The notes: a model not told the origin generated them from the letters alone. A stretch of DNA of 64,000 bases from a virus (IMGVR_UViG_3300043436_002028:4547-68546), one strand, 5' to 3'. Shown: positions 8,336 through 40,093, counted from the stretch's first letter. Numbers and translations are program-made.

Positions 8336-9967
8336 ATGGCTGTCGTAAACGCTGCTCAAGCTACAGTAAAAACCGTAGCTGATCCAAATGCCTCATTTGA
8401 GTCTTTGAAGCCTTTGTGGAATAAATGCAGAGCCGTTTGTAGCGGGGAGCGTTATGTTAAAGATTTTGATGGGACTATTGATACCCTTCGCTTTAGCAAT
8501 TTACTGATTCCATTCTCTCCGTCTATGGATCAAAAGCAATACGACTTCTATAAAGCAGAAGCCGAATTGCCTGGTATCGTAGCACAATTCTCAAAGATGC
8601 TTGTTGGTGGTTTGTTAAGGAAACAGCCTGTTCTATCGTTACCTGATAATGTGCCTTCAGAGGCACAAAACTGGATAATGAATGAATTTGGCAAAGATGA
8701 CTCACCTCTTGCGTCATTCTTAGATTCTGCACTCTGGGAAGAAGTCCAGACAAGTCGTGCTTGGATTTTTGTAGATTATCCTACTATCAAGAATCCAGAG
8801 ACACTGACTAGACAAGATATCGCTAAATATAAGCCTTATCCTATTTTAGTTCAAGCTGAATCCGTAATTAACTGGCGCATTGCTACTGATGAGCTGGGCA
8901 GAAACATCTTAAATCGGGTTATTGTTCGTGGTTTCAAAGAAAAATATGAAACTAATGAATTTCACCCCGACTTGATTGAAGTTGTTTATGTTCATGAATT
9001 AGACGAATCAGGCTATTATCAAATTCGTGTGTTTGAAAGAAAAGACATTGCAACAGATGTTCCTGTGGTAGCTGGTCAAATTGTCAAACAGCCTGGTAAA
9101 TATAAAGTAGCTTTTGAGCTTGCTGACACAATTACTAATATAATGGCTAATGACAAGCGACTTAAAATGATTCCTGCTTGGCCATTAAATGGTAGTATTG
9201 ATGCAATAGAGCCAATGTTGTCTCCCATTATTGACAAAGAAATTTCTTTGTATAATAAAATGAGCAGACGCAATCATTTATTGTATGGCGCTTCTACATA
9301 TACACCTTACATTGCGTCTGATATGTCAGATGATGACTTTGACGAAATTGTGTCTGGTGGTTTAGGTACATGGATTCGATTGCGACAAGGTGATACTGCA
9401 GGTGTTCTTGATACGCCTACGGCTGCTCTTCAAGATATGGATAGAGCAATTGGTGCTGCTATTGAAGAAATGGCAAAGATGGGTATTAGAATGCTTACAC
9501 CTGAGACTGCACAATCCGGTGTTGCATTAGAAATCCGTAATGCTGCTCAAACTGCTCAGTTAGGAACGCTGAACAATAAAATCAGTAATATTATGAGGCA
9601 AGTTATTGCCTTTATGATTAACTGGCGTTATGATTTAGAATTGAAGCCTGCTGATGTTGAATTCTCACTATCTGCTGACTTTAATCCTATCCCTCTTGGT
9701 GCTGACTGGCTCAGACTTGCAACAGAGTGGTATCAACAAGGGCTTATTCCTCGTTCTGTTTGGCTTGATATGCTTAAGCAGAATGATATGATATCGCCTG
9801 ATTACAATGATGTTGAGGGTCAACAAGAGATAACAGCTGACAGTATGATTAATCTTGATCGTCAAGCTAATTTAGCGTATGCTGAACAAATAGCAGCTCA
9901 AAAGTTAAATTTAACAGACGATAAAGACGACGATAATGTTGAAGTAGGAGAACAAAATGGCCGGTAA
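8336..9967 (+). CDS. portal protein (DUF4055-like)
   Basis: 543 aa; Y..Y...A.L, L.RK.P, AES.INWR, SG.AL pattern; position ahead of MuF, scaffold and capsid. Confidence 0.85.
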   Translation: MAVVNAAQATVKTVADPNASFESLKPLWNKCRAVCSGERYVKDFDGTIDTLRFSNLLIPFSPSMDQKQYDFYKAEAELPGIVAQFSKMLVGGLLRKQPVLSLPDNVPSEAQNWIMNEFGKDDSPLASFLDSALWEEVQTSRAWIFVDYPTIKNPETLTRQDIAKYKPYPILVQAESVINWRIATDELGRNILNRVIVRGFKEKYETNEFHPDLIEVVYVHELDESGYYQIRVFERKDIATDVPVVAGQIVKQPGKYKVAFELADTITNIMANDKRLKMIPAWPLNGSIDAIEPMLSPIIDKEISLYNKMSRRNHLLYGASTYTPYIASDMSDDDFDEIVSGGLGTWIRLRQGDTAGVLDTPTAALQDMDRAIGAAIEEMAKMGIRMLTPETAQSGVALEIRNAAQTAQLGTLNNKISNIMRQVIAFMINWRYDLELKPADVEFSLSADFNPIPLGADWLRLATEWYQQGLIPRSVWLDMLKQNDMISPDYNDVEGQQEITADSMINLDRQANLAYAEQIAAQKLNLTDDKDDDNVEVGEQNGR

Positions 9968-10244: not shown

Positions 10245-10403
10245 ATGCCACTAACCAAAGGCTACTCTCAAAAGTCTGTATCTAAAAATATTTCAATGCT
10301 TATAAAAGAGGGAAAACCTCAAAAACAAGCTATTGCAATTGCTTTAGACACAGCTAAAGAAGCTAAGAAGAAAGCTTCTAAATCCAAACCAAATAAAGGT
10401 TGA
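10245..10403 (+). CDS. small basic protein (52 aa; not in ORF track)
   Basis: Translated by hand: [52 protein letters not shown]; resembles a widespread small phage protein family found near head genes. Confidence 0.7.
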
Positions 10404-10420
10404 TACAGCAAGGAATAAGT

Positions 10421-13400
10421 ATGACTGTCAACGCTAATACACAAATATATGACAAAGCTATAGATAGGGCGGCAATGATCCGTCTTTATGAAAGAAGAGT
10501 CAATGGTAAGATTGAATTAGTTATTGACGGTCATACTGTCCGAGTCGATAAGCTTATCAAAGACGCTAATCTTTCTCAAAAAGGCTTTGAGAAGTTAAGA
10601 GAGGCTATTGATCAGGAACTTACAAAAACTTATAAAGAGACTTTTAATATTAGTAAAAGATCTTTATTAGATCTGGTTTCTGATCAATTGTCATATGCGT
10701 ATCAAAACGTTGAAAATGCAATGGGTCAAATTTGGAGAACTCAAAGACCTCAAAGACGCATTGCTGAAGAAATTGTATTAGAAAAACCTCTACATGAAAA
10801 TAGAACACTTGCTGCAGGTTGGGCGGGTGTTAGTGTTAGTGAAAAGAAAAGACTAGAAGCTTTAATTCGTAAAGGTATTTCTGAAGGTAAAACTGCTGAT
10901 CAAATAGCGTTAGAAGTGCGGAAAGGTAATGTTCATAATATTACTCGTATGCAGTCAAAAGCTCTTGTTGTTACTGCAATTACTTCTGTAACTGCCCAAA
11001 CCGATCACGCTGTTTACAAAGCTAACGAACGTGCCCTAGCGGGGTGGCAGTATGTGGCCGTCTTGGATGCCAGAACCACGCCTGTGTGTGCGCACCGAGA
11101 CGGGACTACCTACCCCATTGGGGACACCTCGCACTTGCCTCCGGCCCACTTTAATTGTCGTTCTACAACGATTCCCGTTTTTAAATCTTGGGATGATATT
11201 TCCAAGCTTGAAGGTGCTGCTGAAGTTAGACGTAGAAACCTTGAGGGTCTCACTGATAAACAAAAAGCCTTTTATGATGGTCAAACGCCAATGCGTGAGA
11301 CTTATAATGACTGGCTCTTTAGACAACCGCAAGATGTTCAATTAAGGCATCTTGGTGATTATCAAAAAGTTCAGTTATTTAATAGCGGTCAGATTAGGCT
11401 TGAAAAGTTTACAAATCCAGAAGGTAATTCTATTGGTATTAAAGAGCTTAGAGCAATGACTGACGATGGTTACGAATTGCCTAATGATACTAAAAAGTTT
11501 GCTTCTGCAAAACAGAAACTAGATTCAATGCAATTAGGTGCATCTACACCTGATGACTTTTTTGATAACCAAAAGTTAAAGAATACCTTAGTTGATTACT
11601 ATCTTTTACAAGCAGGTGAGCTTGATGGTACTCTTTCAATAACAAACTACCGTGGTTTGTTAATTGGAACTAAGAGATCTGCAAAGAACAGGGTATTGAC
11701 ATCTCCTCCAAGAGAAGATCAACTTAAGTTTAATCCTATTACTGGACGCTATGAAGACATCCGACTATATCAACCAAATCCAGCTGTCTTATCTAATAAC
11801 CTTAGATTGTTGGACGAAAGCAATGTCTTACTGGATAGAGACAAAGAATTTATTAGATCAGTCAATGACTCTTTGGCTGAAAAGATGAGTGTAAATGAAA
11901 GAGCTGTTGTTGTAGACAATCTACGAACACTCTTCACACGCCACAGAAAGAATCCTGAGCCTTGGGCTAACTTCAAAGCAGTTGTTCAAAGTCAAATAAA
12001 ATTTGATGTAATGAACGTATCTGATGCAATTGAAACACAATTGCGCAGAGACACTAACTTAATGAAAAAGTTGTTACAAGATAATTACATTGATCCTGTG
12101 TTAGGTCCAGTGCAGCTTGATGAATTACACGATTCTTTTATTGCTAACATTGGCAAGAAGAACAAGTGGGAAGACAAAGTTGCACCAAAGATAGCTAGAG
12201 AGCTTAGAGAAGTTTTTGATTTAAGCATTCCTTTAGTTATTAAAAATCGACTAAGTGATGCAGATCTACAACAGTTTTATCTTAAATTTGCTCATAGACT
12301 TAGCCTTGCTGACTTGCCAGATAGAGATCAGTTTGCTGTAGCATTAGGTAGAGATCTTTACAACTTAGCCAATTTAAACGGAGCTAGAAATGCTTGGTAT
12401 AAACTTGGCATGAAGCTTTTAGAAGCTAAGAACGTAAACAAATTCTTTGAAATTGAAACTTTTGGTGTTCAAAAGAGAAGAATGAAAAGTAGACTGAGTG
12501 GTACTTACTTTGGACCGTACTACGACACTATTGCTTACAATATTAGAGTAACAGACCCTAGAGTTCAGGAGTATGCCCAACTAACACGAAAAGTTGAATT
12601 AGGTCTTCGTGTTGCAGTTACATCTGATAAGAATCGACTTGTATTTAGAGAGGGTTATAAAACCTACTTCATTGATCGTGGTGTTCTTGGCTTTGAAGAT
12701 ACAAGAATTCCAATTACATCAACATCAAGTTTTAGTGACTTTCCTGAAGAGTTTGTTGATAAGGAATTTATAGATGCTCTTAACTGGGCATCACAGGCTA
12801 AATATAAGATTGATTCCGACTATTATGACTTTATTAACAAATTATTATACTTTGAGGATGATAAAGGCAAAGCTCAATTTTACAATGGTTTGAATAATTA
12901 TCGTAAGTATATTGCCTCAAGAGGCGATGCATACGAAAGATTCAAGGCAATGGAATGGTTACGAAAGAGTGATAAAGCTTTTAGCAATCATCCGTTTGTT
13001 GATCACCGTGCTCGTATTTACGACCGAGGTTTGATTAGTCCACAAAGTGGTGAGACATTTAGACCGTTCTTAAATACAGCTGAGCCAAAGAATTTTAGTC
13101 CTGAAGAATTTAAAGATTTACAAGATCAGATTGGTGCTTTTCTGGGAGGACTTAGTGATTATCTTGAAGGACGGTTTAACTCACTAACAATCACTGGTAG
13201 ACAAAAGATTGCTGATAAATGGAGACCAGAACTGGTTAAGATTGGCAATCATATGTTACGTGCTAAACCGAACGATATTAGAGCTGTACTAGAGTCAGAT
13301 TTATTAGCTAATATTGATGGTGAAGAACAAGGTAAGTTTCTTAGATTCGCCATTGAATCTGCAAAGATTGATAATTTTCTTGGCGGTGATTACTCAACTG

Positions 13401-15049
13401 CATCTCTTCGAAAGCTAAATGATTATAAAATTTCTTTAGCCCTTGAACAAGATGCTTCGTCATCAGGTGCTCAGATTATTGCATTAACAACTCGAAACAA
13501 ACAATTAGCTGAATTAAGCAACGTAATACCTACAACTCAGAAGAAACGTTTATATGATGAGATTGCAGCAGCCACTTATAACGATCCAAGATTTAAGACT
13601 TTAAATGAAAAGTTTGGTCTTAATGAAAAGGATTTAAGAAAGGCGGCTAAAGCTCAAAACATGGTTACTTTCTATGGTGCTGGTGAAAGAACTGGCATTT
13701 TCAACGTAGAAGGTAAACTTGCTAAAGTTTTAGAGAAAGATGCTAATACACTTGTTGTAAAAGCTGCTGACAGAGATACAGTACTTAATGAAATTAGCGC
13801 TAGAATTGCTAGATACGAAAAGGTCGACCCTGAAACTGCAGAAGAACTTAGAGTGCTTAGAGAAAATGTTAAGGATGTCTTTAACAAAGGGATTGATCCA
13901 GGTGATGATATCTTAGATCAACTCTATTTCCTGGAGCCTAAGACTAAAGATCTTGTTGAAAAACTATCAAGGTCTTACGAGAAAATTGTTACACCAAATG
14001 ATTTTAAGGTGATTGCTCAAATTATGAGTGAGTACCTTAGAGAGCAAGTTCCTATTCTAAAAGAGTTTACTAGATTTTTCGGCAGATTGGCAGAAGACTT
14101 TTTAACTAATGCTAAACCTTCTAAGTCAGACTTTGACTGGCAAACTATTGCTAAAGTTACATTAAGAGGTTCAAAGCAAAAAGGCTACACGTTACCTAAC
14201 TACGTAAGCGAATTATTAGGATTAAAGCCAGGGCAACCTGTTAGTGAAAAGATTCTAAGTCGTTTTGGTTTCTGGAAACCTAATGGTACTTTAAATGAAA
14301 TTGTTTATGGTATACAAGATCCAAAAGCAAGAAGAACAGGTGCTAAGTATTTAAAAGTTGACTTACTACAGCTAAAAACTTTAAACGAACTAGAAGTGTT
14401 TTATGCTAATAAATTACCTAAAAGCTGGACAAATGTCCCTTGGGTTAATTTTGATGGTAAAACAATTGAACAAAACTTTACACAAACATTCGAAGAAAGA
14501 CTTAGATACCGAGATGAAAATGGTAACTGGTTTACTAACATTTTGCAAGTTCCTCAAAAGACCGAAGCAACTTGGTGGGAGCAAGTTATCAACAAGTCTG
14601 GTAAAATAAATGATATTGCAGATGCAACAAAGGCAAGAACTGCTTTTGCTGTTAATGGCAACCATTCTAACGATGCTGTAATTGTTAAACGTTTTCATTT
14701 ATGGGGCCGTGAAAACAATATCACAACATCAACTATTCATGATGCTTTCTTTGCAAATGCTGCAGACATGTTAAAAGCTAGAAATGCTTTAAGAGGCATT
14801 TATGCAAAAACATTAGATCGAAATGTCATTAAGTCTACATTAGACGAAATGAAAGCAAGAGGCCTTCCAAAAGAACTTTATGACAAGTACTTAGAGGAAG
14901 CAATTGAGCTAGGTCTAATACCCGTTCCTGGAAAGTCTAGAGTTGGTGGAAAATTATTGAAAGAATCTGATATCCTCAAAAAGGAAGATATTCTGAAACA
15001 AATTCCAAGCAATTTTCAAGATGATTACGGGTGGTATGGTGTGGGTTAA
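10421..15049 (+). CDS. MuF (SPP1 gp7-like) minor head protein fused to a T7-like DNA-directed RNA polymerase; candidate virion RNAP
   Basis: N-terminal MuF motif WQYVAVLDARTTPVC...DG......PPAHFNCRS; C-terminal RNAP motifs DHRARIY..SPQ, QDASSSGAQ (A), RKAAKAQNMVTFYG (B), NHSNDA, IHDAF (C); start chosen at the ATG after AAGGA. Confidence 0.9.
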   Translation: MTVNANTQIYDKAIDRAAMIRLYERRVNGKIELVIDGHTVRVDKLIKDANLSQKGFEKLREAIDQELTKTYKETFNISKRSLLDLVSDQLSYAYQNVENAMGQIWRTQRPQRRIAEEIVLEKPLHENRTLAAGWAGVSVSEKKRLEALIRKGISEGKTADQIALEVRKGNVHNITRMQSKALVVTAITSVTAQTDHAVYKANERALAGWQYVAVLDARTTPVCAHRDGTTYPIGDTSHLPPAHFNCRSTTIPVFKSWDDISKLEGAAEVRRRNLEGLTDKQKAFYDGQTPMRETYNDWLFRQPQDVQLRHLGDYQKVQLFNSGQIRLEKFTNPEGNSIGIKELRAMTDDGYELPNDTKKFASAKQKLDSMQLGASTPDDFFDNQKLKNTLVDYYLLQAGELDGTLSITNYRGLLIGTKRSAKNRVLTSPPREDQLKFNPITGRYEDIRLYQPNPAVLSNNLRLLDESNVLLDRDKEFIRSVNDSLAEKMSVNERAVVVDNLRTLFTRHRKNPEPWANFKAVVQSQIKFDVMNVSDAIETQLRRDTNLMKKLLQDNYIDPVLGPVQLDELHDSFIANIGKKNKWEDKVAPKIARELREVFDLSIPLVIKNRLSDADLQQFYLKFAHRLSLADLPDRDQFAVALGRDLYNLANLNGARNAWYKLGMKLLEAKNVNKFFEIETFGVQKRRMKSRLSGTYFGPYYDTIAYNIRVTDPRVQEYAQLTRKVELGLRVAVTSDKNRLVFREGYKTYFIDRGVLGFEDTRIPITSTSSFSDFPEEFVDKEFIDALNWASQAKYKIDSDYYDFINKLLYFEDDKGKAQFYNGLNNYRKYIASRGDAYERFKAMEWLRKSDKAFSNHPFVDHRARIYDRGLISPQSGETFRPFLNTAEPKNFSPEEFKDLQDQIGAFLGGLSDYLEGRFNSLTITGRQKIADKWRPELVKIGNHMLRAKPNDIRAVLESDLLANIDGEEQGKFLRFAIESAKIDNFLGGDYSTASLRKLNDYKISLALEQDASSSGAQIIALTTRNKQLAELSNVIPTTQKKRLYDEIAAATYNDPRFKTLNEKFGLNEKDLRKAAKAQNMVTFYGAGERTGIFNVEGKLAKVLEKDANTLVVKAADRDTVLNEISARIARYEKVDPETAEELRVLRENVKDVFNKGIDPGDDILDQLYFLEPKTKDLVEKLSRSYEKIVTPNDFKVIAQIMSEYLREQVPILKEFTRFFGRLAEDFLTNAKPSKSDFDWQTIAKVTLRGSKQKGYTLPNYVSELLGLKPGQPVSEKILSRFGFWKPNGTLNEIVYGIQDPKARRTGAKYLKVDLLQLKTLNELEVFYANKLPKSWTNVPWVNFDGKTIEQNFTQTFEERLRYRDENGNWFTNILQVPQKTEATWWEQVINKSGKINDIADATKARTAFAVNGNHSNDAVIVKRFHLWGRENNITTSTIHDAFFANAADMLKARNALRGIYAKTLDRNVIKSTLDEMKARGLPKELYDKYLEEAIELGLIPVPGKSRVGGKLLKESDILKKEDILKQIPSNFQDDYGWYGVG

Positions 15050-15054
15050 GAGAC

Positions 15055-15070
15055 CCCGTTAAATTAACCC
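15055..15070 (+). promoter_or_regulatory. motif A copy 1 (CCCGTTAAATTAACCC), putative phage promoter/operator
   Basis: Exact 16-mer found four times, always intergenic; here upstream of scaffold and capsid. Confidence 0.7.
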
Positions 15071-15175
15071 AGGTGTAGACTCACCTATATTAGGTAGGTA
15101 GTTTATATATTGAATCCATCATTAATAGAGATTGTATTTCTATTATTTAATGAGTTGTACTCAAAGGATATTAAA

Positions 15176-15856
15176 ATGGCTGATAACCAAGGTCAGAATA
15201 CTGATCAAAACACTGACAACAACCAGAATAGCAATCAGAACAATGCTTCTGACAACTCTCAAAACAAGTCAAACACACCTCCTGATGTTGACTCATTAGT
15301 ACAAGCTAAGCTTGACGAAGCATTAAGAGACATCAAGTCAAAACTTGATAAGGCTTATAGTGCTCGTGATGAGGCTATGACTAAAGTTAAAGAGTTTGAA
15401 AAAGAGAAGCGTGACGCTGAATTAAAACGCTTGCAAGAAGAAGGCAAATTTAAAGAAGCCTACGAAATGCAAGTTAATGAACTTAGTGCAAAACTTACTT
15501 CTGCTGAAAAGCGCAATATTGAGTTAACACGAGATATTGATGTAAGAAACTCTTTGTCATCTCACCCTTTCAGAAATGAGAATGCCGTAGAAATGGCATA
15601 TCGTGAAATCGTGGGGCAACTTGTTCAAAATGAACAAGGTGTTTGGGTTCATAAAACAGGAATGAGTATTAAAGACTTTGTTAAGTCTTTTGCTGACGCT
15701 GATGACAACTCTTTCTTGTTTAAACCGAAAACTAGTTCTGGTTCTGGAAGCAGTGGTACGAAGCCATCTGATACGTCTGGAGGCAAGAAATCTATATTTC
15801 AAATGTCTCAAGATGAAGTTTTGAAACTCGCCAAGGAAGGTAAACTCCGTGGCTAA
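15176..15856 (+). CDS. capsid scaffolding protein
   Basis: Asn/Gln/Asp-rich N-terminus, coiled coil, LFKP..SSGSG near the C-terminus; directly before the capsid gene; RBS AAGGA. Confidence 0.8.
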   Translation: MADNQGQNTDQNTDNNQNSNQNNASDNSQNKSNTPPDVDSLVQAKLDEALRDIKSKLDKAYSARDEAMTKVKEFEKEKRDAELKRLQEEGKFKEAYEMQVNELSAKLTSAEKRNIELTRDIDVRNSLSSHPFRNENAVEMAYREIVGQLVQNEQGVWVHKTGMSIKDFVKSFADADDNSFLFKPKTSSGSGSSGTKPSDTSGGKKSIFQMSQDEVLKLAKEGKLRG

Positions 15857-15878: not shown

Positions 15879-17063
15879 ATGACTGCTCGTACGAACGTTG
15901 CTGGTGCTGATAACTTTGTGTTACAGGAAGCAATTAGTGCTTATACCGATGAAGCTTACACCAATGAAAAGAAGCTTGTCGGTACTGGTATTGTTGGTGA
16001 TAACCCCAATATCGATACTTCTACTGAGACCTTTATTGGTCAAATGCGTTGGTTCAAGCCTTTGAACCCTACTGTGAACGTTGCTTCGCTGACTGACGCT
16101 ACTGATGGTACGAAAACTAACTATAGCTCAGACTACCTGAACTATGTTAAGACTGTTCGTACGCATGGTGCTGAGAAGGTCAACATGCAACAAGTGGTGA
16201 CTCAGCAAGACGGTCTTGCTAAGATTGGTCGTGACTTTGCCGAAACTCGTGCTAAAGATGAACACAACGCTCTGTTGTCTATTCTGAAGGGTGTGGCTAT
16301 CTCTGAAGCTCTTAACGGTGCTGCAGCTGGTTCTGGTCAGACTGGTCTTGGCGGTCAAACCTTCGACAACGATCCTGCTGACAAGCGTTATGGCTTCTAC
16401 GTGGATCTTGGTTCTAGCAAGCCTGTTGTTGCAGCTACTTCCGCTGTTCAAGGTGCTGCTCGTGCTGAAGCCTTCTTGAATGCCTTTGGCATGGCTTATA
16501 AAGATTATGAGCCTGAGTACGCTTATCTGGTTACTTCGCCTGAGATCATGGCTTCTCTCCGTTCTGCTAACTTGGTCGACTCTGACCCTGTGCAAGACGG
16601 TAATGTCATGTTCAACACGATCTTCCAGGGTAAGTTCCGTCTGATTCAGACTCGTGCTGCTCAAAGCTTGTCTTCTGCTGAACTGACCAAAATCAACAGC
16701 GGTGGTGGTGTTAACATTGTTGGTACAAAGACTTCTTTCATTGTGCTGCCTGGTGCTGTCGCAATGAGACCTCTGTCTGTGCCCGATCAAGTTGAAATCT
16801 ACCGTGATGGTAACAAGTACAAAGGTGGCGGTGCTACCTCTGTTTGGTATCGTTGGGGTTATGTCATGGCTCCCGCTGGTTACAACTGGGCTGGTTCTGC
16901 TGACAAGTTCCCGTCTGATGCCGAGTACATGTATGCTATTGAAAGTGGTACTCCGAAGGCTGTTACTTCGATTACTGATGGTGCTGCCAGCACTACTGGT
17001 TCTTGGGGTCGTAAGTTCAACTCTGCTCTGAGTCTTGGTATTCTGCCAGTCTTCCACGCTTAA
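15879..17063 (+). CDS. major capsid protein
   Basis: 394 aa; position after scaffold; strongly biased high-expression codon usage. Confidence 0.85.
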   Translation: MTARTNVAGADNFVLQEAISAYTDEAYTNEKKLVGTGIVGDNPNIDTSTETFIGQMRWFKPLNPTVNVASLTDATDGTKTNYSSDYLNYVKTVRTHGAEKVNMQQVVTQQDGLAKIGRDFAETRAKDEHNALLSILKGVAISEALNGAAAGSGQTGLGGQTFDNDPADKRYGFYVDLGSSKPVVAATSAVQGAARAEAFLNAFGMAYKDYEPEYAYLVTSPEIMASLRSANLVDSDPVQDGNVMFNTIFQGKFRLIQTRAAQSLSSAELTKINSGGGVNIVGTKTSFIVLPGAVAMRPLSVPDQVEIYRDGNKYKGGGATSVWYRWGYVMAPAGYNWAGSADKFPSDAEYMYAIESGTPKAVTSITDGAASTTGSWGRKFNSALSLGILPVFHA

Positions 17064-28691: not shown

Positions 28692-29257
28692 TTCAATTTA
28701 ATCAAGTAATCCAAAACATTATATCTCAACCAACAGTAGAGTTATTCTATTTAGTTAATATCGATGGTTATAAGGTAACTAATTATTTTAGAAATATTAC
28801 TCTTTCTAATGGAGAGGTTTATGAAGCTAATGGTAGGTTGCTTCAAGTGGATCCTCCACAGTTAAGTAGTACTGTTGATAGAGAATTATACAAAATAACT
28901 TTTGCTGACCCTGACTTTTACTTTGGTCAAGAAGCGCCTGTTAGTGTTGTTGGAAAACCGGTTACTGTCAGGGTTGGCTTTATAAACCCTACTACAAAGT
29001 TTCCAGTTACCGAAATTGAAAACACTGTAATTATTTATAAAGGTGCTGTTGATGGCACTTCTTATAGTGTTGATACAGAAAATACAGGCGAATCTATATG
29101 GCTTGTAACTTGTGCAAGTCCTATGAACGATCTTGAAATGGTAAGAGCTATGTATACTTCAAAAGATTCAGTTAGGCTAGTTTCTCCAGGAGATAACAGC
29201 TTTGACCAAATCTATGAAGGAGGTGGCGAAGTTGAATTAAAGTGGGGTAGAGGATGA
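28688..29257 (+). CDS. tail tip/hub protein
   Basis: Synteny; C-terminal P.D..F.......LKWG pattern. Confidence 0.65.
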   Translation: MIQFNQVIQNIISQPTVELFYLVNIDGYKVTNYFRNITLSNGEVYEANGRLLQVDPPQLSSTVDRELYKITFADPDFYFGQEAPVSVVGKPVTVRVGFINPTTKFPVTEIENTVIIYKGAVDGTSYSVDTENTGESIWLVTCASPMNDLEMVRAMYTSKDSVRLVSPGDNSFDQIYEGGGEVELKWGRG

Positions 29258-32200
29258 TTACAACAGTTATTGCTTGGGTTATTGCAAACCCTTGGACAGC
29301 TGCTTTTATTATTGCATCAACTAGCTATTCGATTATTCAAGCTAAAAAGATGCGAAAAGCAATGCGTGACTCAGCAGAAGCTAGAAAGGGTTACGAGGTC
29401 GTTACTACAGGCGATGTTCAACCAATTCCTATTGTATATGGTAGGGCTAAAATTGGCGGTACTCGTGTTTGGCATAATACAAAAGGATCTCATGAAGTTC
29501 CTCAAGGTTTTGTACCAAATGCAAATAAAGTATTTGATGTTGGAGCTAATCCTGTAGATGAAAGAACTATTACATATGAAGAGTATGATCCTGAGTATGG
29601 GTACTCAACTCTTACCAAGACAATACCTCCATCTTCGGCAGGAAATTTAGGAATAACAATACCAGGCTCAAAGAATGAGTTTTTGTATTTTCAACAAGTT
29701 CTCTGTCACGGTCCAATAAACAAAGTTGTAGATTTTGTAGTTGATGAATCCAGGTTTAGCAATGATCCTGACTTAGGTAAAATTGAAGGAAGCCAGATTA
29801 GTTCTAACACAGTAAAAGCTGGTTTTAGAACTGAAGTTCATTATGATGGTAGCGTAGCAAACCTCTTGGTCTCCTACAATTTTGGAGAACGACAGACTGC
29901 TAAATTTCCTGGACTTGCATACGCATCTACAGCAATTCGTCTGAACAGAGACGATCCACAGTTCCAAGGCCAAGTGCCTATGGTTCAATACTTTATTGAG
30001 GGCAGAAAAGTTAGAACTGTTTCTAACGGTGTTCTGAATAATACAAGAGTTTATACAAATAATCCTGCATGGTGTTTGTTAGATTATTTACTAGAAAATT
30101 CAGACAGACTTTATGAAGGTAAGAAGCTTTTTGAAGTCGGTAAAGGTTTAGCCTTAGATCAAATTGATTTATTGTCTTTCGAACAAGCGGCTGCCATATG
30201 TAATCAAACTGTAATATCTAGCGTACCTACTTATGGTAACGTTTGGAATTCAGTAGATAACTCTACAATTACAACAACACGATCTGTACCTCTTTATGAG
30301 TGCAATATGATTGTTGACGTTGAAAAGCCAATCAGAGAAAATATTGAAGCTATTCTTGCTTGTATGGGTGATGCTAGATTAGTATGGTCTGGAGGTAAAT
30401 ACAAACTATCCTTACAATACCCAAATTCTAATGCATCTGTTTCATTAGCAACTACAATTACTGACGATGACCTTATTCAAGGCTCAAAGTTTGAACTTGT
30501 TTGGCCTACATCTAGTGAAAGACTGAACAACGCTACAGTTAGATTTCACAATGAAGCTGAGAACTTTAAAGAAGACTCTGTAAGTTGGCCTCCAAAACAA
30601 TCTGCTCAGTACTTTAAAGGTATTGGTGGTAAAAGGTATGCTAATTCCGAAAATACTGACGGTGCTTTACTCTCATCTTATGGTGTTTGGCAGGGTGGCA
30701 CATATAATCCGCCGCCTTTTAACTGGAAATTTATTGCTAAAGCAACTGGTGCACATGTTTTACAGTTCCAAGTTGACAATTACGGCTCAATCAGTATAAC
30801 AAACAATAGTACAGGCGCTTCTGTATTTTCAAGCAGTTTCAGTGGAGCTAGTACGGTTCATGTTAGAAATAATATCAACTTAGTTGAAAATCAAGTTTAC
30901 TCGGTTGTAATTACTGCTGTAAATACAGGTGGCCCTGGTGGTGTTGCTGCAAGGCTTTCAAAAGATAATTTTATTTACTGGAGCACAAAAGATCCTGCAT
31001 ATGAAGCATTTACGCTTGTAAATGTAAGCGATGCAGTGTACCAGTCAATGCTTACAGAAGACTCCGGATTAAAACTTGAAACAACAATGTTTTATGATGG
31101 GTGTACAGACTATTATCATGCGCTTGCAAAAGCTGAAGAGCTTGTAAGAACAAGTCGTAGTGCAATTTCTGTATCCTTTGAATATTTAGTAAAAGATAAG
31201 TTTCTAGAGCCTGGTGATTTTATCAAAATAGAATCGCCTAGTTTAAACTTAGGTGATGAAGACTTTTATGTTAGAGTTGCTGAAGTTAAACTTAGTGAAA
31301 CAGGAACTTGTGAAGTTAAAGGTTCTAGATTTGATTATACTCAATTAGCTTGGAATGTAAATGACAACGAGTATACAACTCCACCTAACATATTTGGTTT
31401 TAGAGTTCCAGCACCTAGACAAATTATCTATGTGCCTATTCAAAATATAGGTGATTCGACCTCTATAGGTGAATTGCAGTGGACTCCAGTTGACTTTGAT
31501 TCCTTCGCTGGTTATGTTGTATATTACAACACTTTTGATAATTATGACTCTAATGGTCTACCTATCTTTATTGAATTGGGTAGAACTGTTGCAAGTAATT
31601 TTGTCTTACCTGCATTAAATATTGACTCAGCTGTTTTTGCAGTAAGGGCTGTTTCAAAGTCTAACAGATATTCTAAATACGTAACTACAGGTAATACCGC
31701 TGTAAGAATTCCAAAGATTTTTCCTAGAGCTGTTGAAGTTACAGCACCCTCGTTATTCTTTATTCAGAGAGCAAACTCAATTAATTTTGTTTCAAATCAA
31801 ATTACATTAACCACAACAATCAAAAACTATCTTGAACCGCAGTATCGTTGGTTTGTAGATAATACTTTAATTGTTGGTGCAACATCAGACTCATTAACAA
31901 TAAACTCATTTGCAACAGGATTAAGTAAAAGATATCGAGTTGAGGTTTATGAGGCTTCTAACGAAGAAACACAAGCTGAAGACTTTGTTACTATTTACTC
32001 AATTCAAGAAGGCTCAAGTGGCTATACAGTGCTACTGTCCAACGAATCGAGACAAATTATAGCTAATTATGAAGGTCTTGTTGCTCCAAATCAATTTCCT
32101 TATCAAATTCAAGTAACTGTACTGAGAGGTACTGAAAACGTAACTGCTGGTGCAACAATTAGTTTAGGCACACTGACAGGTATTTCAGCAACATTATCTT

Positions 32201-35200
32201 CAGATATTATTACTGTAAACGCACTAAATGCAATTACCGGAACAGGTCTTGTTAGTATTGCAATTGATAATGTTACTTTAACAAAACTCTTTTATATAAC
32301 AAAAATTGTACCGGGAAGAAGTCCTGAGGTCTTACGATTAACTTCAAACAGATATGGATTTCCTTTTGAGACCAGTGAGAGTACTACACCTTTTGTTTCT
32401 CAAATTGATTTTAATGTATTTTTAGAAAATATTGATGGGGTTGTTACTGTAGTAGCAAAGGCTTATAGTTATGAAAACGCATTGCTAGGCCAGTTTTCGA
32501 TTATTCCTGATCAGAATAATGAATTTGTTATTACAGACACTCAGTTTAATCAGTTTGATGAAACAAATACTGCATATGTAACAGTTACAGCTAGTCTTGA
32601 AGATCTTAGTGATACAATTACTGTTTTTAGAGTTAACGATGGACAGTCGGTTTTTAACTTTAATCTTGAAAACGAATCACACTTAGTGCCTGCAACATTT
32701 GAAGGTCAAATCACTGACTTAGATGAAGCTTACACGCCTTTGAGAACTTACAGAGGCTTTACTGAAGTTACTGCTGCTAGCACATTTTCAATATTTGCCT
32801 CTAATGGTGGAACTGCAATAATTACGGGCAATGGTACGTCTAACGTAACATTAAGTCTTTTGACAATGTCCGAGGATGTTGCGACATTTACTGTATTAGC
32901 GGTAATTCCAACAGGAGTCGTTGTTGATAATGTACCTCAAACAGTTTCTCTTAAAAAGGTGTTTAGTGTTGCAAAAGCTAGAGATGGCGCTCCTGGAACA
33001 CCTGGGACTAAGGCATTAATTGTTTATGCATTTAAACGATCAATAACTGCACCTACTACAAGTCCAGGAAGTGCTACATATAGTTTTACCTTAGCAAACT
33101 TTACTACAGCATTGGCAAACGGTTGGACAGAAACTATACCAGAGTATATTGATCAAGATCATGAGTTATATGTATCTGTTGCTACTGTAATTGATAGCAA
33201 TAATGACAATCTTGCAGCAGTTGCTTCTAATGATTGGTCATCTCCTGTTGTATATTCAGCAAATTCATTTAGCTCTGCTTCGGTATTCCTTTACAAGAGG
33301 ACTGAGACTGATGTACCATTACCTGAACCACAAACAGCAAATGGGCAGCCATCAGAATATACATTTAGAACAAAAGAACTTACAAATATTCCAACAGGCT
33401 GGTCTACTCTTATTCCGGCTAAAGGCCAGAATGATAGGTATCTTTGGGTATCTGTTGCTACAGTTGCTAGTTCTACAGAATCAGATTTAATCTTAGGAGG
33501 TCCAACTTCTTCTGAATGGTCTGTGCCAACAATCCTTTCAGAAAAAGGAGAAGACGCAATTGCGTTTGTAGGATTCCTTACAAATGATTCACATGTATTA
33601 GCAGCAAGTAGTACAGGAGTTGTTTCTGATTATTCTGGAGCAACGGGTCAGTTTCTTGTTTATTTGAATGGACAACCTGCCACAGGCGTCACATACGCCT
33701 ATGTTTCAAGTACTGGCTTTAGTACTGCGCCAACAGGTTCTATTAATGCAAATACTGGTGTTTATACTATTACAGGTATAGGGTCTGGTGGATCAATTAA
33801 TAGCAATGTGAACAATGCAACTGTTGTTTATTCAGCAACTGTAAATTCAGTTGTAGTTGCAACTCAAACATTTACTATTAGCAAGGCCAAAGCTGGCGTT
33901 AATGGTCAAACACCTACTCTTTATAGATTACTTGCAAATACAAGTGCTGTTAAACTAACAAAGACTCTAGACACATATATCCCAGGTACGTTAACTTTTG
34001 ATGCATTTAGCAAAACAGGAACTGCTGATTGGACTGGTGCAACTGTAAGAATTGATATTGAAGGCAGTGTTGGTGGCACTTCTTGGACACAACTTGCTAC
34101 AGTATCCTCAGGTACTTCTCTAAGTCATATACTGGCAACTACTGGAACAACTTATCGATTCTTTAGAGGACTTCTTAAAGTAAACAGTGTTACAATTGAA
34201 AATGAAGTAATTCCTGTAGTTGTAGATGGTGCTGATGGTGATCCTGGTGATTATGTCTCTTATGTATTTAAGGAGAGTGCAAACCAGCCAATTACACCAA
34301 GCAGTACTGATGTTGTTCCTGCCGGATGGTCTGACACTTTACCAGCATCATACACTGAGCCTGTGTGGATGACTAAGGCAACTATTTCTGGTGTAACCGG
34401 ATTAGCTGGTACTTGGGATCCTCCTATTAAGGTTACAGGAACAGACGGTGATGAAGGCCAATACACTTATTATGAATATGCTAAAAACAGTGACTTTTTA
34501 GCTGCACCTACGACAGGCTGGTCTAATACTGTTCCTAGTATAACATATGGAGAATATCTCTGGCTACGCCCAGTAGCGTTTGAGCCTGCAACAAATACAG
34601 CAACAACAGGTAATGCTTTTAGAGCTACTGGAGAAAAAGGCAATCCTGGTGATCCTTCTTATTCAATTAAGATTGTTGCATCTAGTCTTATCTTTAAGAA
34701 TAGCAAAGCAGGCGTGGTTTCTCCAGACTATATCACATTAACAGCTGTCAGACAAAATCTATATAATGTAGTTAACTGGAGTGGATTTACTGTAAGATCC
34801 GGTACAAGCCCAAGCAGTAGCATAGTAACAACAGGTACAACAGTCTATTTACATAAAGCTGACTTTATTGGTAATAGTGTAAGTATAACTGCAACACCTA
34901 GTTTCCCTTCTAATATTAACGATACTGTAAGTATCTTGATGGTTCAAGAAGGTTTAGATGCCATATCAGTATCTAATTCAAATCCGACACATACAATCAA
35001 TGCGTATGCTGGCGGACAGGCAATTAGCATGTCTGGCTCTGGAACTACAATTGGTGTTTACGCTGGAGCTACACCACTTAGTTATAGTGCAACTCAAGGT
35101 ACATTAGGAACTTTCACAATTACTAGTGTAACAAAAAACAATATAACTACAGGTGTTATTAACTCTGGAACTATTCCTGATCATACAGGAATGACAGACT

Positions 35201-36933
35201 CTGCTACAGAAGGTTCTGTAACTTACAATATTGCCTATACAACAGCTAATAATATTTCTGGTACAATTTCAACTACACAAACTTTTATTAAAAATATTTT
35301 AGTTGCTGGTGCTTCGCTCTCGGCTACTGCTGTTACATTTACATATAATGTTGACAATACGCTTTCCAGCCCTGCGTCTAGTACAATAACAGCATCTTCT
35401 GTTAATGTGTTAAATCCTTATTATGTATTTAAGAAGGGTATTACGACATTACAAGAAGGAACAGGCACTTCTTTAACCTACACTCCTGCTGCTTCGTATC
35501 TTAACATGCCTGAAACAATTACTGTTCAGGTGTATAAAGATTCAAGCAAAGCAAGTGTTTTAGCTTCTAACAGTATAGCTTTAAATGCTACTAGAGTTGG
35601 AGCTACAGGTTCAGGAGCTCCTGGTGCTGCTACTTTCTATATTAATAGAGGTACAAGTAGTAGTTCTGCTGTTCCTACAGATGCTGAAGTTCTTGCAGCA
35701 ATTGGAAGATACTCGGTTATTGGAGACCTTGCAACGATTTCATATAACAGTGGTGTTAATGCCATTTCATATCGTTGTACAGCACCTTATCCATCGGCTT
35801 CTTGGTCTGTGCAGTCTAGCTTTCTTTCTGGTGACTTATTTGTTTCAGGTAGTATTAGTGGAGATAAAATTGACACTAATACACTAACGGCAAAAACCAT
35901 TAGAACGGCAACGACTGGCCAACGCGTTGAAATTAATCAGGGAAACTCTAATGAAGTTGTATTCTTTGGTAATCAAGGCGACGGTACTATAACTGAGTTA
36001 GCCAGAATCGGTATTCAGTCTGTTGGCCAAGATGACTTTACAGTTCTAGAAGCAGGTACTTCAAATTCTAGTCATGTTGGAGGCTATTTTGTTTCAGGAA
36101 CTAACAGAGCTCTTGAAGCTGTATCAATCTGGAGAAATGCTTTTTCAGGAGTTGCATTTAAAAATGCACCAGGTCCAGTTGGAGGTGATACTACGGTTGC
36201 ATATGGTATGCATGCATCTGGATATGGAGCTTACACAGGTGGAGTCTTTGGTTACGCAACAGGTGGTGTAAATAACACAGGCGTGCACGGTTGGAGTAAT
36301 GGCAGCTCTGGTCAAAATCAATTCTCTAGAGGTGTATGGGGTGCTTCTGTTAACGGTGTCGGTGTCTTTGGTGACGGTGCTACTTATGACTTTTACGCAG
36401 GTGGCTCTGGTTCAAACTATGGACCCTTTACTGGTACACACGATGGATTAGTAGATAATAACGACACTTTAGAGCTAGGGGATATTGTTGTTGACGCTGA
36501 AATTCTGCATAAATATAGTCTATCAAGCTGTTTGTTTAGAAATACAAAGTCAACAGTCGCTGCTCAAAAAGGTGTTGTTGGTGTTGTTAGTGCCATTAAG
36601 CCTATAACATTAGAAAGTTTACCAGCTGCACTTATTGATGACTATATTCAAGAGACAGGTGATGCTTTACCTATAGCTAATGCTGACCAGATTATAGGTA
36701 ATCGTTATAGAATTATGATCAATGCTTTAGGTGAAGGTCAAATAAATGTATGTGGTGAAAATGGTAATATCGAAGTTGGCGACTTAATTATATCATCTTC
36801 AATGCCTGGAAAAGGAATGAAACAGGCTGACGATATTGTAAGAAGCTATACTGTTGCTAGAGCACGAGAAGCCGTAAATTTTGATTCACCTACTGATGTG
36901 AGACAAATAGCATGCATTTACCTGTGCGGATAA
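29254..36933 (+). CDS. central tail fibre / tip attachment protein (gpJ-like)
   Basis: PIPIVYGR.K.GG, PGLAY, YTNNPAWCLLDYL, LEPGD; FN3/Ig-like repeats; C-terminal GEG.INVCGENG.I..GD.I..S..PG.GMKQ domain. Confidence 0.9.
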   Translation: MITTVIAWVIANPWTAAFIIASTSYSIIQAKKMRKAMRDSAEARKGYEVVTTGDVQPIPIVYGRAKIGGTRVWHNTKGSHEVPQGFVPNANKVFDVGANPVDERTITYEEYDPEYGYSTLTKTIPPSSAGNLGITIPGSKNEFLYFQQVLCHGPINKVVDFVVDESRFSNDPDLGKIEGSQISSNTVKAGFRTEVHYDGSVANLLVSYNFGERQTAKFPGLAYASTAIRLNRDDPQFQGQVPMVQYFIEGRKVRTVSNGVLNNTRVYTNNPAWCLLDYLLENSDRLYEGKKLFEVGKGLALDQIDLLSFEQAAAICNQTVISSVPTYGNVWNSVDNSTITTTRSVPLYECNMIVDVEKPIRENIEAILACMGDARLVWSGGKYKLSLQYPNSNASVSLATTITDDDLIQGSKFELVWPTSSERLNNATVRFHNEAENFKEDSVSWPPKQSAQYFKGIGGKRYANSENTDGALLSSYGVWQGGTYNPPPFNWKFIAKATGAHVLQFQVDNYGSISITNNSTGASVFSSSFSGASTVHVRNNINLVENQVYSVVITAVNTGGPGGVAARLSKDNFIYWSTKDPAYEAFTLVNVSDAVYQSMLTEDSGLKLETTMFYDGCTDYYHALAKAEELVRTSRSAISVSFEYLVKDKFLEPGDFIKIESPSLNLGDEDFYVRVAEVKLSETGTCEVKGSRFDYTQLAWNVNDNEYTTPPNIFGFRVPAPRQIIYVPIQNIGDSTSIGELQWTPVDFDSFAGYVVYYNTFDNYDSNGLPIFIELGRTVASNFVLPALNIDSAVFAVRAVSKSNRYSKYVTTGNTAVRIPKIFPRAVEVTAPSLFFIQRANSINFVSNQITLTTTIKNYLEPQYRWFVDNTLIVGATSDSLTINSFATGLSKRYRVEVYEASNEETQAEDFVTIYSIQEGSSGYTVLLSNESRQIIANYEGLVAPNQFPYQIQVTVLRGTENVTAGATISLGTLTGISATLSSDIITVNALNAITGTGLVSIAIDNVTLTKLFYITKIVPGRSPEVLRLTSNRYGFPFETSESTTPFVSQIDFNVFLENIDGVVTVVAKAYSYENALLGQFSIIPDQNNEFVITDTQFNQFDETNTAYVTVTASLEDLSDTITVFRVNDGQSVFNFNLENESHLVPATFEGQITDLDEAYTPLRTYRGFTEVTAASTFSIFASNGGTAIITGNGTSNVTLSLLTMSEDVATFTVLAVIPTGVVVDNVPQTVSLKKVFSVAKARDGAPGTPGTKALIVYAFKRSITAPTTSPGSATYSFTLANFTTALANGWTETIPEYIDQDHELYVSVATVIDSNNDNLAAVASNDWSSPVVYSANSFSSASVFLYKRTETDVPLPEPQTANGQPSEYTFRTKELTNIPTGWSTLIPAKGQNDRYLWVSVATVASSTESDLILGGPTSSEWSVPTILSEKGEDAIAFVGFLTNDSHVLAASSTGVVSDYSGATGQFLVYLNGQPATGVTYAYVSSTGFSTAPTGSINANTGVYTITGIGSGGSINSNVNNATVVYSATVNSVVVATQTFTISKAKAGVNGQTPTLYRLLANTSAVKLTKTLDTYIPGTLTFDAFSKTGTADWTGATVRIDIEGSVGGTSWTQLATVSSGTSLSHILATTGTTYRFFRGLLKVNSVTIENEVIPVVVDGADGDPGDYVSYVFKESANQPITPSSTDVVPAGWSDTLPASYTEPVWMTKATISGVTGLAGTWDPPIKVTGTDGDEGQYTYYEYAKNSDFLAAPTTGWSNTVPSITYGEYLWLRPVAFEPATNTATTGNAFRATGEKGNPGDPSYSIKIVASSLIFKNSKAGVVSPDYITLTAVRQNLYNVVNWSGFTVRSGTSPSSSIVTTGTTVYLHKADFIGNSVSITATPSFPSNINDTVSILMVQEGLDAISVSNSNPTHTINAYAGGQAISMSGSGTTIGVYAGATPLSYSATQGTLGTFTITSVTKNNITTGVINSGTIPDHTGMTDSATEGSVTYNIAYTTANNISGTISTTQTFIKNILVAGASLSATAVTFTYNVDNTLSSPASSTITASSVNVLNPYYVFKKGITTLQEGTGTSLTYTPAASYLNMPETITVQVYKDSSKASVLASNSIALNATRVGATGSGAPGAATFYINRGTSSSSAVPTDAEVLAAIGRYSVIGDLATISYNSGVNAISYRCTAPYPSASWSVQSSFLSGDLFVSGSISGDKIDTNTLTAKTIRTATTGQRVEINQGNSNEVVFFGNQGDGTITELARIGIQSVGQDDFTVLEAGTSNSSHVGGYFVSGTNRALEAVSIWRNAFSGVAFKNAPGPVGGDTTVAYGMHASGYGAYTGGVFGYATGGVNNTGVHGWSNGSSGQNQFSRGVWGASVNGVGVFGDGATYDFYAGGSGSNYGPFTGTHDGLVDNNDTLELGDIVVDAEILHKYSLSSCLFRNTKSTVAAQKGVVGVVSAIKPITLESLPAALIDDYIQETGDALPIANADQIIGNRYRIMINALGEGQINVCGENGNIEVGDLIISSSMPGKGMKQADDIVRSYTVARAREAVNFDSPTDVRQIACIYLCG

Positions 36934-37373
36934 TTAAGCCACGAACTATTGAAGATGTAATAACTTGTGTAGAGATGTATTATGCACTCAACGATCATTC
37001 TTTTATAAAAGTCTCAAAAGATCGATCTATTAAATTTCTTCTTCAATTTTGTAAACAAAACAAATTTGTAAGAATCTTACTTAATAGCAAAGACGAGATT
37101 GAAGCTTGGATCTATGCCGATATTGGACAACCTTATCATTGCGATGATAAAGTTATGCAACAGATGTACTATGCATCTAATCAGACTGGTGTAAGAGCTT
37201 ATCGAAATGTAGTTGATTTGCATAATGCACTTCTTGAAGAAGCTAAGTTACGTAATATTTCTTTAGTAATGTCTCAAGGTAGTCATTTAGATGAGCAAAA
37301 TGTGTTCACTAGGATACTTGAGAAAAATGGGTGGGATCGGAGGGGCCATATAGCCCTTAAACGCCTCACCTAG
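36924..37373 (+). CDS. GNAT-like acetyltransferase-fold protein
   Basis: IKPRTIEDV start, L...A......V..., R.LEK.GW end; overlaps the fibre stop; GTG start inferred. Confidence 0.55.
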   Translation: MRIIKPRTIEDVITCVEMYYALNDHSFIKVSKDRSIKFLLQFCKQNKFVRILLNSKDEIEAWIYADIGQPYHCDDKVMQQMYYASNQTGVRAYRNVVDLHNALLEEAKLRNISLVMSQGSHLDEQNVFTRILEKNGWDRRGHIALKRLT

Positions 37374-37378
37374 CTACT

Positions 37379-37472
37379 AGGTTGGTCCGAGGTGCGATTT
37401 TTCTGGGTGGGTCATACTTGCCCCATCGGTTGACGAAAAATTGCGCCTTGGACCGCCTATTTTTGTTTATTT
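37379..37472 (+). other. long RNA stem-loop / terminator at the end of the tail operon
   Basis: 20-bp stem GGTCCGAGGTGCGATTTTTC / GAAAAATTGCGCCTTGGACC with three G:U pairs, an inner hairpin and a downstream T-rich tract. Confidence 0.6.
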
Positions 37473-37518
37473 CTTACACTTAAAAATTTAAGAAATATTC
37501 AAAGTTTCATTCAACAAA

Positions 37519-37534
37519 CCCGTTAAATTAACCC
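37519..37534 (+). promoter_or_regulatory. motif A copy 2
   Basis: Exact CCCGTTAAATTAACCC upstream of the lysis genes. Confidence 0.7.
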
Positions 37535-37590
37535 CCAATGGTAGCCCCTATAATTTGACTAGTTGTTGATGTAGATAAGGATTATAAAAC

Positions 37591-38642: not shown

Positions 38643-38646
38643 CCTT

Positions 38647-38675
38647 AACCCCACTGAAAAGTGGGGTTTTATTTT
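38647..38675 (+). terminator. intrinsic terminator
   Basis: AACCCCACT-GAAA-AGTGGGGTT followed by TTATTTT. Confidence 0.8.
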
Positions 38676-38702
38676 GCGGAAAAATCAGTATCTTATATGA
38701 TA
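38674..38702 (+). promoter_or_regulatory. motif B copy 1, putative early promoter
   Basis: TTGCGGAAAAATCAGTATCTTATATGATA; core GTATCTTATATGA occurs four times upstream of genes. Confidence 0.75.
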
Positions 38703-38761
38703 ACCTAAAAAGTAACATTTCGAGTTATCTTTAAATCAACCAACTAACCAAAAGGATTCAA

Positions 38762-39367: not shown

Positions 39368-39400
39368 GACAAAAGTCTATAAACTGAAAGGAGCCTTTAA

Positions 39401-40082: not shown

Positions 40083-40093
40083 AAGGTTGAAAA

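Follow-up and report, generated by a model that had tools for sequence, protein, structure and literature searches.

Can an RNA polymerase be carried into a cell by a protein of the phage head, and which genes would such an enzyme read first? These questions are raised by a gene at positions 10421-15049 of IMGVR_UViG_3300043436_002028:4547-68546, which covers 64,000 bases out of one viral contig (68,546 bases, 98% complete by CheckV) from a lake-water siphophage. This whole stretch of 64,000 bases is referred to as the window, and positions are counted from its first base. The gene joins a MuF-type minor head domain to a single-subunit RNA polymerase (RNAP) of the T7 class within one open reading frame (ORF). 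Reasoning from phages with comparable components, we consider it probable that the product is loaded into the capsid, ejected together with the genome and used as the early polymerase of a transcriptional relay resembling that of phage N4.

One open frame between the portal and scaffold genes

All large ORFs of the window lie on the + strand. The order of genes is portal, two small ORFs, the fusion gene, scaffold and major head gene, which places the fusion in the slot that gp7 occupies in SPP1. The features of this region are as follows (lengths in amino acids, aa):

10421-15049, + strand: MuF-RNAP fusion gene, 1542 aa plus stop (ORF listing, translation, Pfam and PHROGs)
10421-11620, + strand: MuF / SPP1 gp7-type minor head domain, residues 1 to about 400
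11621-12112, + strand: helical connecting region, residues about 401-564, outside the T7-aligned range (AlphaFold2, AF2; no family match)
12113-15046, + strand: T7-class single-subunit RNA polymerase module, residues about 565-1542 (VIA-align, profile and invariant residues)
8336-9967, + strand: portal protein (phrog_145, E 3.5e-56; Pfam DUF4055)
15110-15856, + strand: scaffolding protein (phrog_206)
15879-17063, + strand: major head protein (phrog_247, E 3.8e-22)

The frame without stops runs from 10400 to 15049. Its likely start is the ATG at 10421, which has AAGGAA just 5' of it; an alternative start at an upstream TTG would give a protein of 1549 aa instead of 1542 aa. An earlier note on this DNA, made from the sequence alone, had described one uninterrupted ORF between portal and scaffold, with a MuF signature in the gp7 slot and the full set of T7-family RNAP motifs. 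All of this was borne out, the motifs down to their positions.

The MuF assignment is supported by two family collections, with Phage_Mu_F (PF04233) matched in Pfam at residues 145-251 (E 1.3e-12, 48.8 bits vs a cut-off of 29.6) and phrog_241 (head morphogenesis) matched in PHROGs at residues 2-389 (E 6e-60). Since the fusion ORF is the sole MuF match in the genome, it must also perform the head function. In a family alignment of 24 full-length members with 21-71% identity, the invariant columns of the MuF part include L215, D216, T219, C223, P240, P241, H243, C246, R247 and S248, with L215-C223 encoded at 11063-11089 and P240-S248 at 11138-11164. An AF2 model of residues 1-600 has a predicted local distance difference test score (pLDDT) of 86.2, a predicted template modelling score (pTM) of 0.58 and a low-confidence loop at residues 350-356. 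Compared with 48,161 PDB representatives, this model gave only generic helical-bundle matches (Z<=11, model residues 8-206). The portal is the presumed docking partner of the MuF domain; a complex prediction of the portal (10-row alignment) with MuF residues 1-400 scored 0.00, which counts neither for nor against docking.

Catalytic residues and fold of the polymerase module

In the C-terminal part of the protein, Pfam finds RNA_pol (PF00940; E 1e-11, 44.8 bits vs a cut-off of 22) and PHROGs finds phrog_414 (RNA polymerase; residues 843-1097, E 5e-21). The catalytic motifs can be followed along the gene: D861-H-R-A-R865 begins at 13001, the motif A aspartate D1011 is at 13451, motif B extends from K1077 to Y1085-G1086 at 13649-13678, H1415-S-N-D1418 lies at 14663-14674 and the motif C aspartate D1441 is at 14741. 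Polymerase columns that are invariant in the 24 members include R865, D1011, K1074, K1077, Y1085, G1086, D1418 and D1441; by profile, R865, D1011, K1077, Y1085, D1418 and D1441 align to T7 R425, D537, K631, Y639, D787 and D812. MuF is found in 24/24 members and RNA_pol at E<=0.001 in 19/24. Catalytic integrity is thus kept under purifying selection, and the polymerase is apparently active.

The sequence itself is far from any enzyme of known structure, and a single-sequence phmmer search of PDB with the whole protein gave 0 matches at E<=1. The family profile, searched against the same database, retrieved T7 RNAP (E 4.4e-23), mitochondrial RNAPs (about 2e-16) and both subunits of N4 RNAPII (9e-7 and 2e-4); no chain of the N4 virion RNAP (vRNAP) was among its matches at E<=1. 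An AF2 model of residues 400-1542, built from a 36-row alignment (pLDDT 82.6, pTM 0.79), is of low confidence at model residues 846-856 and 891-934. Mitochondrial and T7 RNAPs hold the top ranks for this model in Foldseek. VIA-align superposes model residues 168-1143 on T7 33-883 (Z 29.2, root-mean-square deviation 6.2, 590 aligned), vs Z 19.6 for the N4 mini-vRNAP. Because the profile matches T7 RNAP, the Z score is 29.2 against 19.6 and T7 33-883 is spanned, the module is judged from the model to be complete, including a counterpart of the T7 N-terminal domain, and to belong to the T7 class rather than to the N4 vRNAP lineage. The earlier note had read the C-terminal part as a complete T7-like RNAP with an architecture unlike that of the N4 vRNAP, and had proposed Pfam and structure prediction as checks; these placed both families above their cut-offs, recovered a T7-class fold with all catalytic residues kept, and so upheld it.

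Homologues, distribution and introns

A cluster search with residues 620-1542 matched 422 clusters at E<=0.001. The best 120 of these are nearly all 1520-1580 aa long with both Pfam domains present, and the homologous clusters derive from contigs of up to about 90 kb in several archives. An exhaustive phmmer search of 1.84 billion representatives gave 155 at E<=0.001, among which all near-full-length matches have 590-970 residues before the polymerase part; no ordinary T7-like polymerase of ~880 aa was reached by this search. Two of the representatives, P0145 (785 aa) and P0156 (812 aa), resembled stand-alone polymerase modules. P0145 was rejected as such, as it sits within a 1504-aa ORF with MuF and RNA_pol in an IMG/VR contig, and a 70%-identical relative carries a 1509-aa ORF; P0156 is considered further below.

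The gene is present at 40 independent IMG/VR loci and is also found in named phages. In a set of 50,697 phage records, matches over 80% or more of the fusion protein are confined to four, namely EBPR siphovirus 1 (62% identity), DSS3_PM1 and, twice, DSS3_VP1 (29%), with coverage of 95-100%. Phage records label the fusion 'head protein', 'minor head protein-like protein' or 'head morphogenesis'; for DSS3_VP1, RefSeq gives gp080 as 'RNA polymerase' and the fusion, gp108, as 'head morphogenesis' only. The fusion is therefore a recurrent design, with hundreds of metagenomic clusters and the cultured Naomiviridae. The earlier note had called for a search for this same architecture, which was thus found in quantity, and had stated that it knew of no characterised example. 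The latter agrees with our literature search, in which no paper describing a MuF-RNAP fusion was found in literature outside subscription journals, but the design itself is not rare.

Insertions break up the polymerase part in some relatives; they follow residues 1082 (motif B), about 996 and 1413. Four of the insertions, one each in L029 and L031 and two in L044, are Rfam group I introns above the gathering score (RF00028, 66-76 bits):

L029:13239-13473, group I intron
L031:5278-5592, group I intron
L044:13251-13489, group I intron
L044:15105-15368, group I intron

The insertion points of these introns are motif B, after residue 1082, and the vicinity of HSND, after residue 1413. The motif B insertion of EBPR siphovirus 1 (L001) bears an HNH endonuclease gene, gp48, from which it follows that the annotated 'gp47 head protein' and 'gp49 hypothetical protein' represent two exons belonging to a single gene. 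That homing elements sit at catalytic motifs is consistent with a conserved and needed gene.

Together, these observations bear on whether the locus is an assembly artefact, a frameshifted pseudo-fusion or a decayed and inactive relic. Although the window comes from a single metagenomic contig, we found no evidence in support of this explanation and regard it as scarcely credible. The fusion is not an assembly artefact, because 422 clusters match the polymerase part and because cultured Naomiviridae and EBPR siphovirus 1 carry it; the 40 independent loci likewise speak against an artefact. The earlier note had set a stop, frameshift or mis-assembly between the domains as refuting, and none was found: a contig made by a second assembler (run X1) covers 11044-14443, crossing the junction, with 0 differences, run X1 possibly being the source sample and hence not an independent confirmation. 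A decayed relic is further contradicted by the invariance of all catalytic residues and by the group I introns that relatives carry at conserved catalytic motifs. Chance fusion or a mis-join is excluded for the fusion frame.

A second polymerase and two classes of promoter-like motif

The genome also encodes a free polymerase that is 35% identical to DSS3_VP1 gp080, and that shares with the fused module about 25% identity in two short stretches only. Both polymerases occur in DSS3_VP1 too, and in 4/4 complete close relatives. In one relative (G004:C1:46656-48425), the match to the free RNAP falls into two parts with an internal TGA, possibly another intron or a break.

Repeats were mined intergenically by k-mers, and two motif classes were obtained; besides motifs 1 and 2, the mining yields only transfer RNA (tRNA) boxes and two short AT-rich 9-mers. 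The positions of the motifs and of the free polymerase are as follows (SD, Shine-Dalgarno sequence):

15053-15070, + strand: motif 1 copy ACCCCGTTAAATTAACCC, 4 nt 3' of the fusion stop and upstream of the scaffold/capsid genes
37517-37534, + strand: motif 1 copy, heading the lysis cassette (endolysin 38136-38642)
38647-38668, + strand: terminator-like hairpin, closing the late region / lysis cassette
38673-38703, + strand: motif 2 copy TTTGCGGAAAAATCAGTATCTTATATGATAA, opening the early region immediately 3' of the terminator-like hairpin
39338-39368, + strand: motif 2 copy, preceding small early ORFs and the free RNAP gene
40867-43161, + strand: free T7-like RNA polymerase, 764 aa (PF00940, E 2.5e-63)
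44244-44261, + strand: motif 1 copy, heading replication and nucleotide-metabolism genes
54923-54953, + strand: motif 2 copy, with an SD (AAGGAG) starting right after the core
58792-58809, + strand: motif 1, fifth copy
58849-58879, + strand: motif 2 copy, some 55 nt 3' of a motif 1 copy

Motif 1 is AACCCGTTAAATTAACCC. It has 5 copies in the genome, all on the + strand, with 4 in the window vs 0.06 expected, and the copies head the terminase region, the scaffold/capsid genes, the lysis cassette and the replication genes. The core GTTANATTAACCC is found 3' of the fusion stop in exact form in 33/40 relatives and with one mismatch in one more, the remaining 6 being without it; the 40 stretches downstream of the stop represent 33 distinct sequences. 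Motif 2 has 4 copies, two of which lie upstream of small ORFs that lead to the free polymerase. Its conserved block of 26 nt is GCGGAAAA-N4-GTATCTTATATGA, and the consensus of 15 sites in five phages reads tGCGgaAAA-N4-GTATCTTATATGAwA. Across five complete genomes the cores of both motifs do not vary, and both motifs are on the forward strand in 4/4 complete relatives. The arrangement is also conserved, with the free RNAP gene 1.5-4 kb downstream of motif 2 and motif 1 following within about 1 kb in 5/5 genomes. A free polymerase and two motif classes fit a relay, and this is new support beyond what the earlier note contained. Promoter-specific, factor-independent transcription by the fused module is predicted, with the motifs as candidate promoters only.

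In DSS3_VP1 (L061/L062, NC_055826.1), a T7-like promoter candidate is ATAGGKTRCGTTAAAGAGGGGG, which stands at least 12 times before structural and replication genes and has CGTTAAA in common with motif 1. No copy of it occurs within 29.4-45.9 kb, where the free polymerase gene of that phage sits. The k-mer search of the DSS3_VP1 early region was noisy, and a cleaner one, restricted to intergenic DNA, yielded GCATCTATAATGA alone, at two sites, which is a weak lead. Hairpins of the stem-TGT-loop type, as found in front of the scaffold gene, were considered as N4-style hairpin promoters and rejected; there are 5 on the + strand of the genome, only one of them intergenic, and 200 shuffles gave a mean of 1.63 and a maximum of 7.

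A polymerase probably delivered from the capsid

In SPP1, gp7 is directed by the portal to the procapsid interior and aids the initiation of infection (PMC6316719). What we infer for the present phage – with MuF loading and ejection argued by analogy with SPP1 gp7, N4 and P23-45 – comprises packaging, ejection, activity and which polymerase reads which motif. The MuF part would bind the portal at procapsid assembly, so that few copies of the whole protein would be enclosed in the capsid. On infection, the fusion protein would exit with the DNA through the tail and then refold. The delivered polymerase would transcribe the early region, the free RNAP gene included, from motif 2 promoters; the motif 1 promoters (CCCGTTAAATTAACCC), which stand before the terminase, replication, lysis and scaffold/capsid genes, would next be read by the free polymerase. 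The fusion gene belongs to the late genes itself, so that new polymerase would be made in time for packaging. Since capsid and lysis genes have motif 1 in front of them, the reverse assignment of polymerases to motifs is unlikely. The earlier note had likewise seen in MuF a packaging and ejection tag for an RNAP that would permit host-independent early transcription and possibly transcription-driven DNA entry; its interpretation is supported in part, the steps from packaging to DNA entry being argued by analogy.

Several points weigh against this proposal. The tail channel of a siphovirus is too narrow for a folded polymerase of ~110 kDa, which would therefore need to unfold and refold; to our knowledge, passage of this kind is known for N4 and not for a MuF cargo. 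For gp7-like toxin fusions, delivery by the same route is 'proposed' (PMC6316719). The terms 'RNA polymerase', 'RNAP', 'MuF', 'minor head' and 'virion' are absent from the main text of the Naomiviridae paper (PMC8323127). Representative P0156, of 812 aa, begins at the polymerase module and looks like a stand-alone form. Three lake-water DNA runs contain window 36800-45000, and no RNA runs with it were found. The free RNAP gene is separated from the motif 2 sites by a terminator-like hairpin (40605-40641). Lastly, some copies of motif 2 have the form TTGCGG-N16-TATGAT, with a partial sigma-70 look, and the DSS3_VP1 look-alike of motif 2 is TCTATAATG, so the host sigma-70 RNAP could be the early polymerase.

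This last point leads to an explanation in which the fusion protein is packaged and delivered, but host RNAP reads motif 2 as in T7 and the polymerase has some other task: internalisation of the genome by transcription, replication priming, or transcription from one or a few promoters that were not detected. T7 RNAP internalises T7 DNA, and mining for repeats would miss a single-copy promoter, which makes such tasks conceivable. The structure of motif 2 speaks otherwise. Across its 15 sites the -35-like TTG is variable whereas the spacer is conserved, and a sigma-70 consensus scan, which found 24 sites vs 27 expected, did not list the two motif 2 sites within its range. At two sites the SD begins 1-2 nt after the motif 2 core, which places the transcription start within the block or at its end, in the manner of a T7-type promoter. 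On sequence grounds, motif 2 looks more like a T7-type promoter, in which conservation reaches the start site, than like a sigma-70 one. The genome also encodes its own Toprim primase-helicase, so a priming role for a delivered polymerase is not needed. We consider this explanation unlikely.

Another explanation is that the polymerase works only in the producing cell, either as a late-gene polymerase or after cleavage from MuF, in which case packaged copies would be inert and the fusion would serve to couple expression. The position of the gene in the late structural operon is compatible with this, residues 350-356, a low-confidence loop, could allow cleavage or act as a hinge, and the ejection step of our own proposal is argued by analogy. 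We nonetheless hold it to be quite improbable. The fusion is retained from 100% down to 21% identity, in 24/24 members, and no confirmed stand-alone form of the polymerase module was found among the 155 phmmer representatives. Intracellular work is already served by the free polymerase, the gene of which needs some earlier transcribing enzyme. Delivery of the fused polymerase from the capsid as the early enzyme is thus the reading that we favor as probable.

Comparison with known systems

One close comparison is N4 gp50, which is likewise a right-hand, T7-related single-subunit polymerase encoded among late/virion genes. Both phages have a second T7-like polymerase for later genes, and a host-independent start by a packaged enzyme is proposed in common, here from what the genes alone tell. 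N4 gp50, at about 3500 aa, brings its own regions for injection, at the N-terminus, and for encapsidation, at the C-terminus, as well as a zincin-like domain (PMC5512222). The present fusion differs in having 1542 aa with a MuF anchor, Pfam finding only MuF and RNA_pol in it, whereas gp50 is without MuF. By the Z scores given above, the fused polymerase is nearer to T7 than to the N4 mini-vRNAP. This phage is a siphovirus with a 2609-aa tape measure, whereas N4 is a podovirus (Schitoviridae), and motif 2 differs from N4 promoters in that no conserved hairpin was seen on reading the aligned sites.

In P23-45, a vRNAP fused to the tape measure protein (gp96) transcribes the pre-early genes, including that of a second RNAP, and the two enzymes have two distinct promoter motifs (PMC10770324). 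The likeness lies in a siphovirus with a virion structural protein fused to an RNAP, a second non-virion RNAP and two motif classes. The difference is that P23-45 has two-barrel (cellular-type) enzymes, the vRNAP being joined to the N-terminus of the tape measure as carrier, whereas a T7-type enzyme is joined here to a head-internal MuF domain; in the tape measure of the present phage (20254-28083), only tape-measure families are found from residue 2 onwards.

As a MuF cargo protein, the fusion has the usual plan of an N-terminal MuF domain in the gp7 slot and a C-terminal enzymatic module in one polypeptide. Loading through the portal and delivery at infection are assumed for such cargo (PMC6316719, PMC5512222), and MuF-VIP2 fusions occur in Microbacterium phages (PMC7302621). 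The cargoes described in the available texts are toxins or host-modifying enzymes, whereas the cargo here is a polymerase; RNA polymerase as a MuF cargo is not mentioned in the available parts of PMC6316719, PMC5512222 and PMC7302621. A 2017 survey of polyvalent proteins reports many MuF cargoes and virion RNAP modules in N4-like phages only (PMC5512222). With T7 and mitochondrial RNAPs (PF00940), the module shares the fold over nearly the whole T7 enzyme and the same catalytic residues. It differs from T7 RNAP in its very divergent sequence, in never having been confirmed as a free protein and in a low-confidence insertion at 1290-1333, before the hairpin that should match the specificity loop.

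The same fusion in the same gene order is found in the Naomiviridae (roseophages DSS3_VP1 and DSS3_PM1) and in EBPR siphovirus 1, which differ in being marine or activated-sludge phages. The DSS3 phages contain deoxyuridine (dU) in place of deoxythymidine (PMC8323127), and the Naomiviridae enzyme may be adapted to uracil-containing templates. In the available text of a 2025 paper on Naomiviridae diversity, 'RNA polymerase', 'RNAP', 'MuF' and 'minor head' are absent.

Other features of the genome

The scaffold gene has its likely start at an ATG near 15176, after a conserved hairpin and an SD. The hairpin, TGAGTTGTACTCA at window 15151-15163, lies immediately 5' of that SD. The form GAGTYGTACTC occurs within 260 nt 3' of the fusion stop in 34/40 relatives (intergenic stretch, L010-L049), and another hairpin of identical TTGTA loop (AAAGATTGTATCTTT type) usually stands 5' of it. 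These hairpins may be an RNA operator or a processing site for the scaffold/capsid message.

The ORF at 44845-45468 has a dATP/dGTP diphosphohydrolase N-terminal domain (PF18909, E 3.4e-23); near it are a guanylate-kinase-like ORF at 43855-44244 and a class II ribonucleotide reductase at 52079-53986. Editing of the deoxynucleoside triphosphate pool may take place, perhaps involving a non-canonical base, given the dU of relatives. In 37 window ORFs scanned with Pfam, neither a dCMP deaminase nor a thymidylate synthase was found, the genome's first 4546 bases and many small ORFs being outside the scan. The 2609-aa tape measure implies a very long tail, and a tail protein of 2559 aa is encoded at 29254-36933. 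Five tRNA genes lie at 59775-61716 (Ser-TGA, Thr-TGT, Arg-TCT, Leu-TAA and Met-CAT), and a free-standing, SegE-like GIY-YIG homing endonuclease is encoded at 49759-50250, between the 5'-3' exonuclease and primase-helicase genes. In DSS3_VP1 (NC_055826.1), the start and end share at least 40 nt (55-94 = 75015-75054). The clear Shine-Dalgarno sequences of the present phage (for example at 10408-10420 and 54951-54962) are at odds with the 'Flavobacterium sp.' label of the UniRef relative P0005.

Significance

RNAPs delivered by virions are of a few unrelated types, which include N4 gp50, crAss-like gp66, and the multisubunit enzymes of jumbo phages and of PBS2/AR9. If the proposal is true, a MuF-anchored enzyme of the T7 class would be a further independent solution beside the N4, crAss-like, multisubunit and P23-45 types. 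The annotation of the gene as a mere head morphogenesis protein would be corrected. Rifampicin-resistant early transcripts would then be an easy readout for the long-standing, unproven idea that MuF cargo is ejected, and a compact single-chain polymerase with a new 26-nt promoter could possibly serve as an orthogonal transcription tool. The siphovirus lineage with MuF-RNAP takes in the freshwater relatives, EBPR siphovirus 1 and the marine, dU-containing Naomiviridae; it is widespread and mostly uncultured, and its two cultured members allow direct tests. Across this lineage MuF could act as a general tag for capsid loading and ejection, such that the delivered RNAP alone would start infection at motif 2 and activate the second polymerase, with host RNAP never needed; no earlier virion RNAP would then belong to the T7 class proper, and no earlier MuF cargo other than a toxin would have a defined early role – a wider claim that we put forward tentatively, giving it somewhat less than an even chance.

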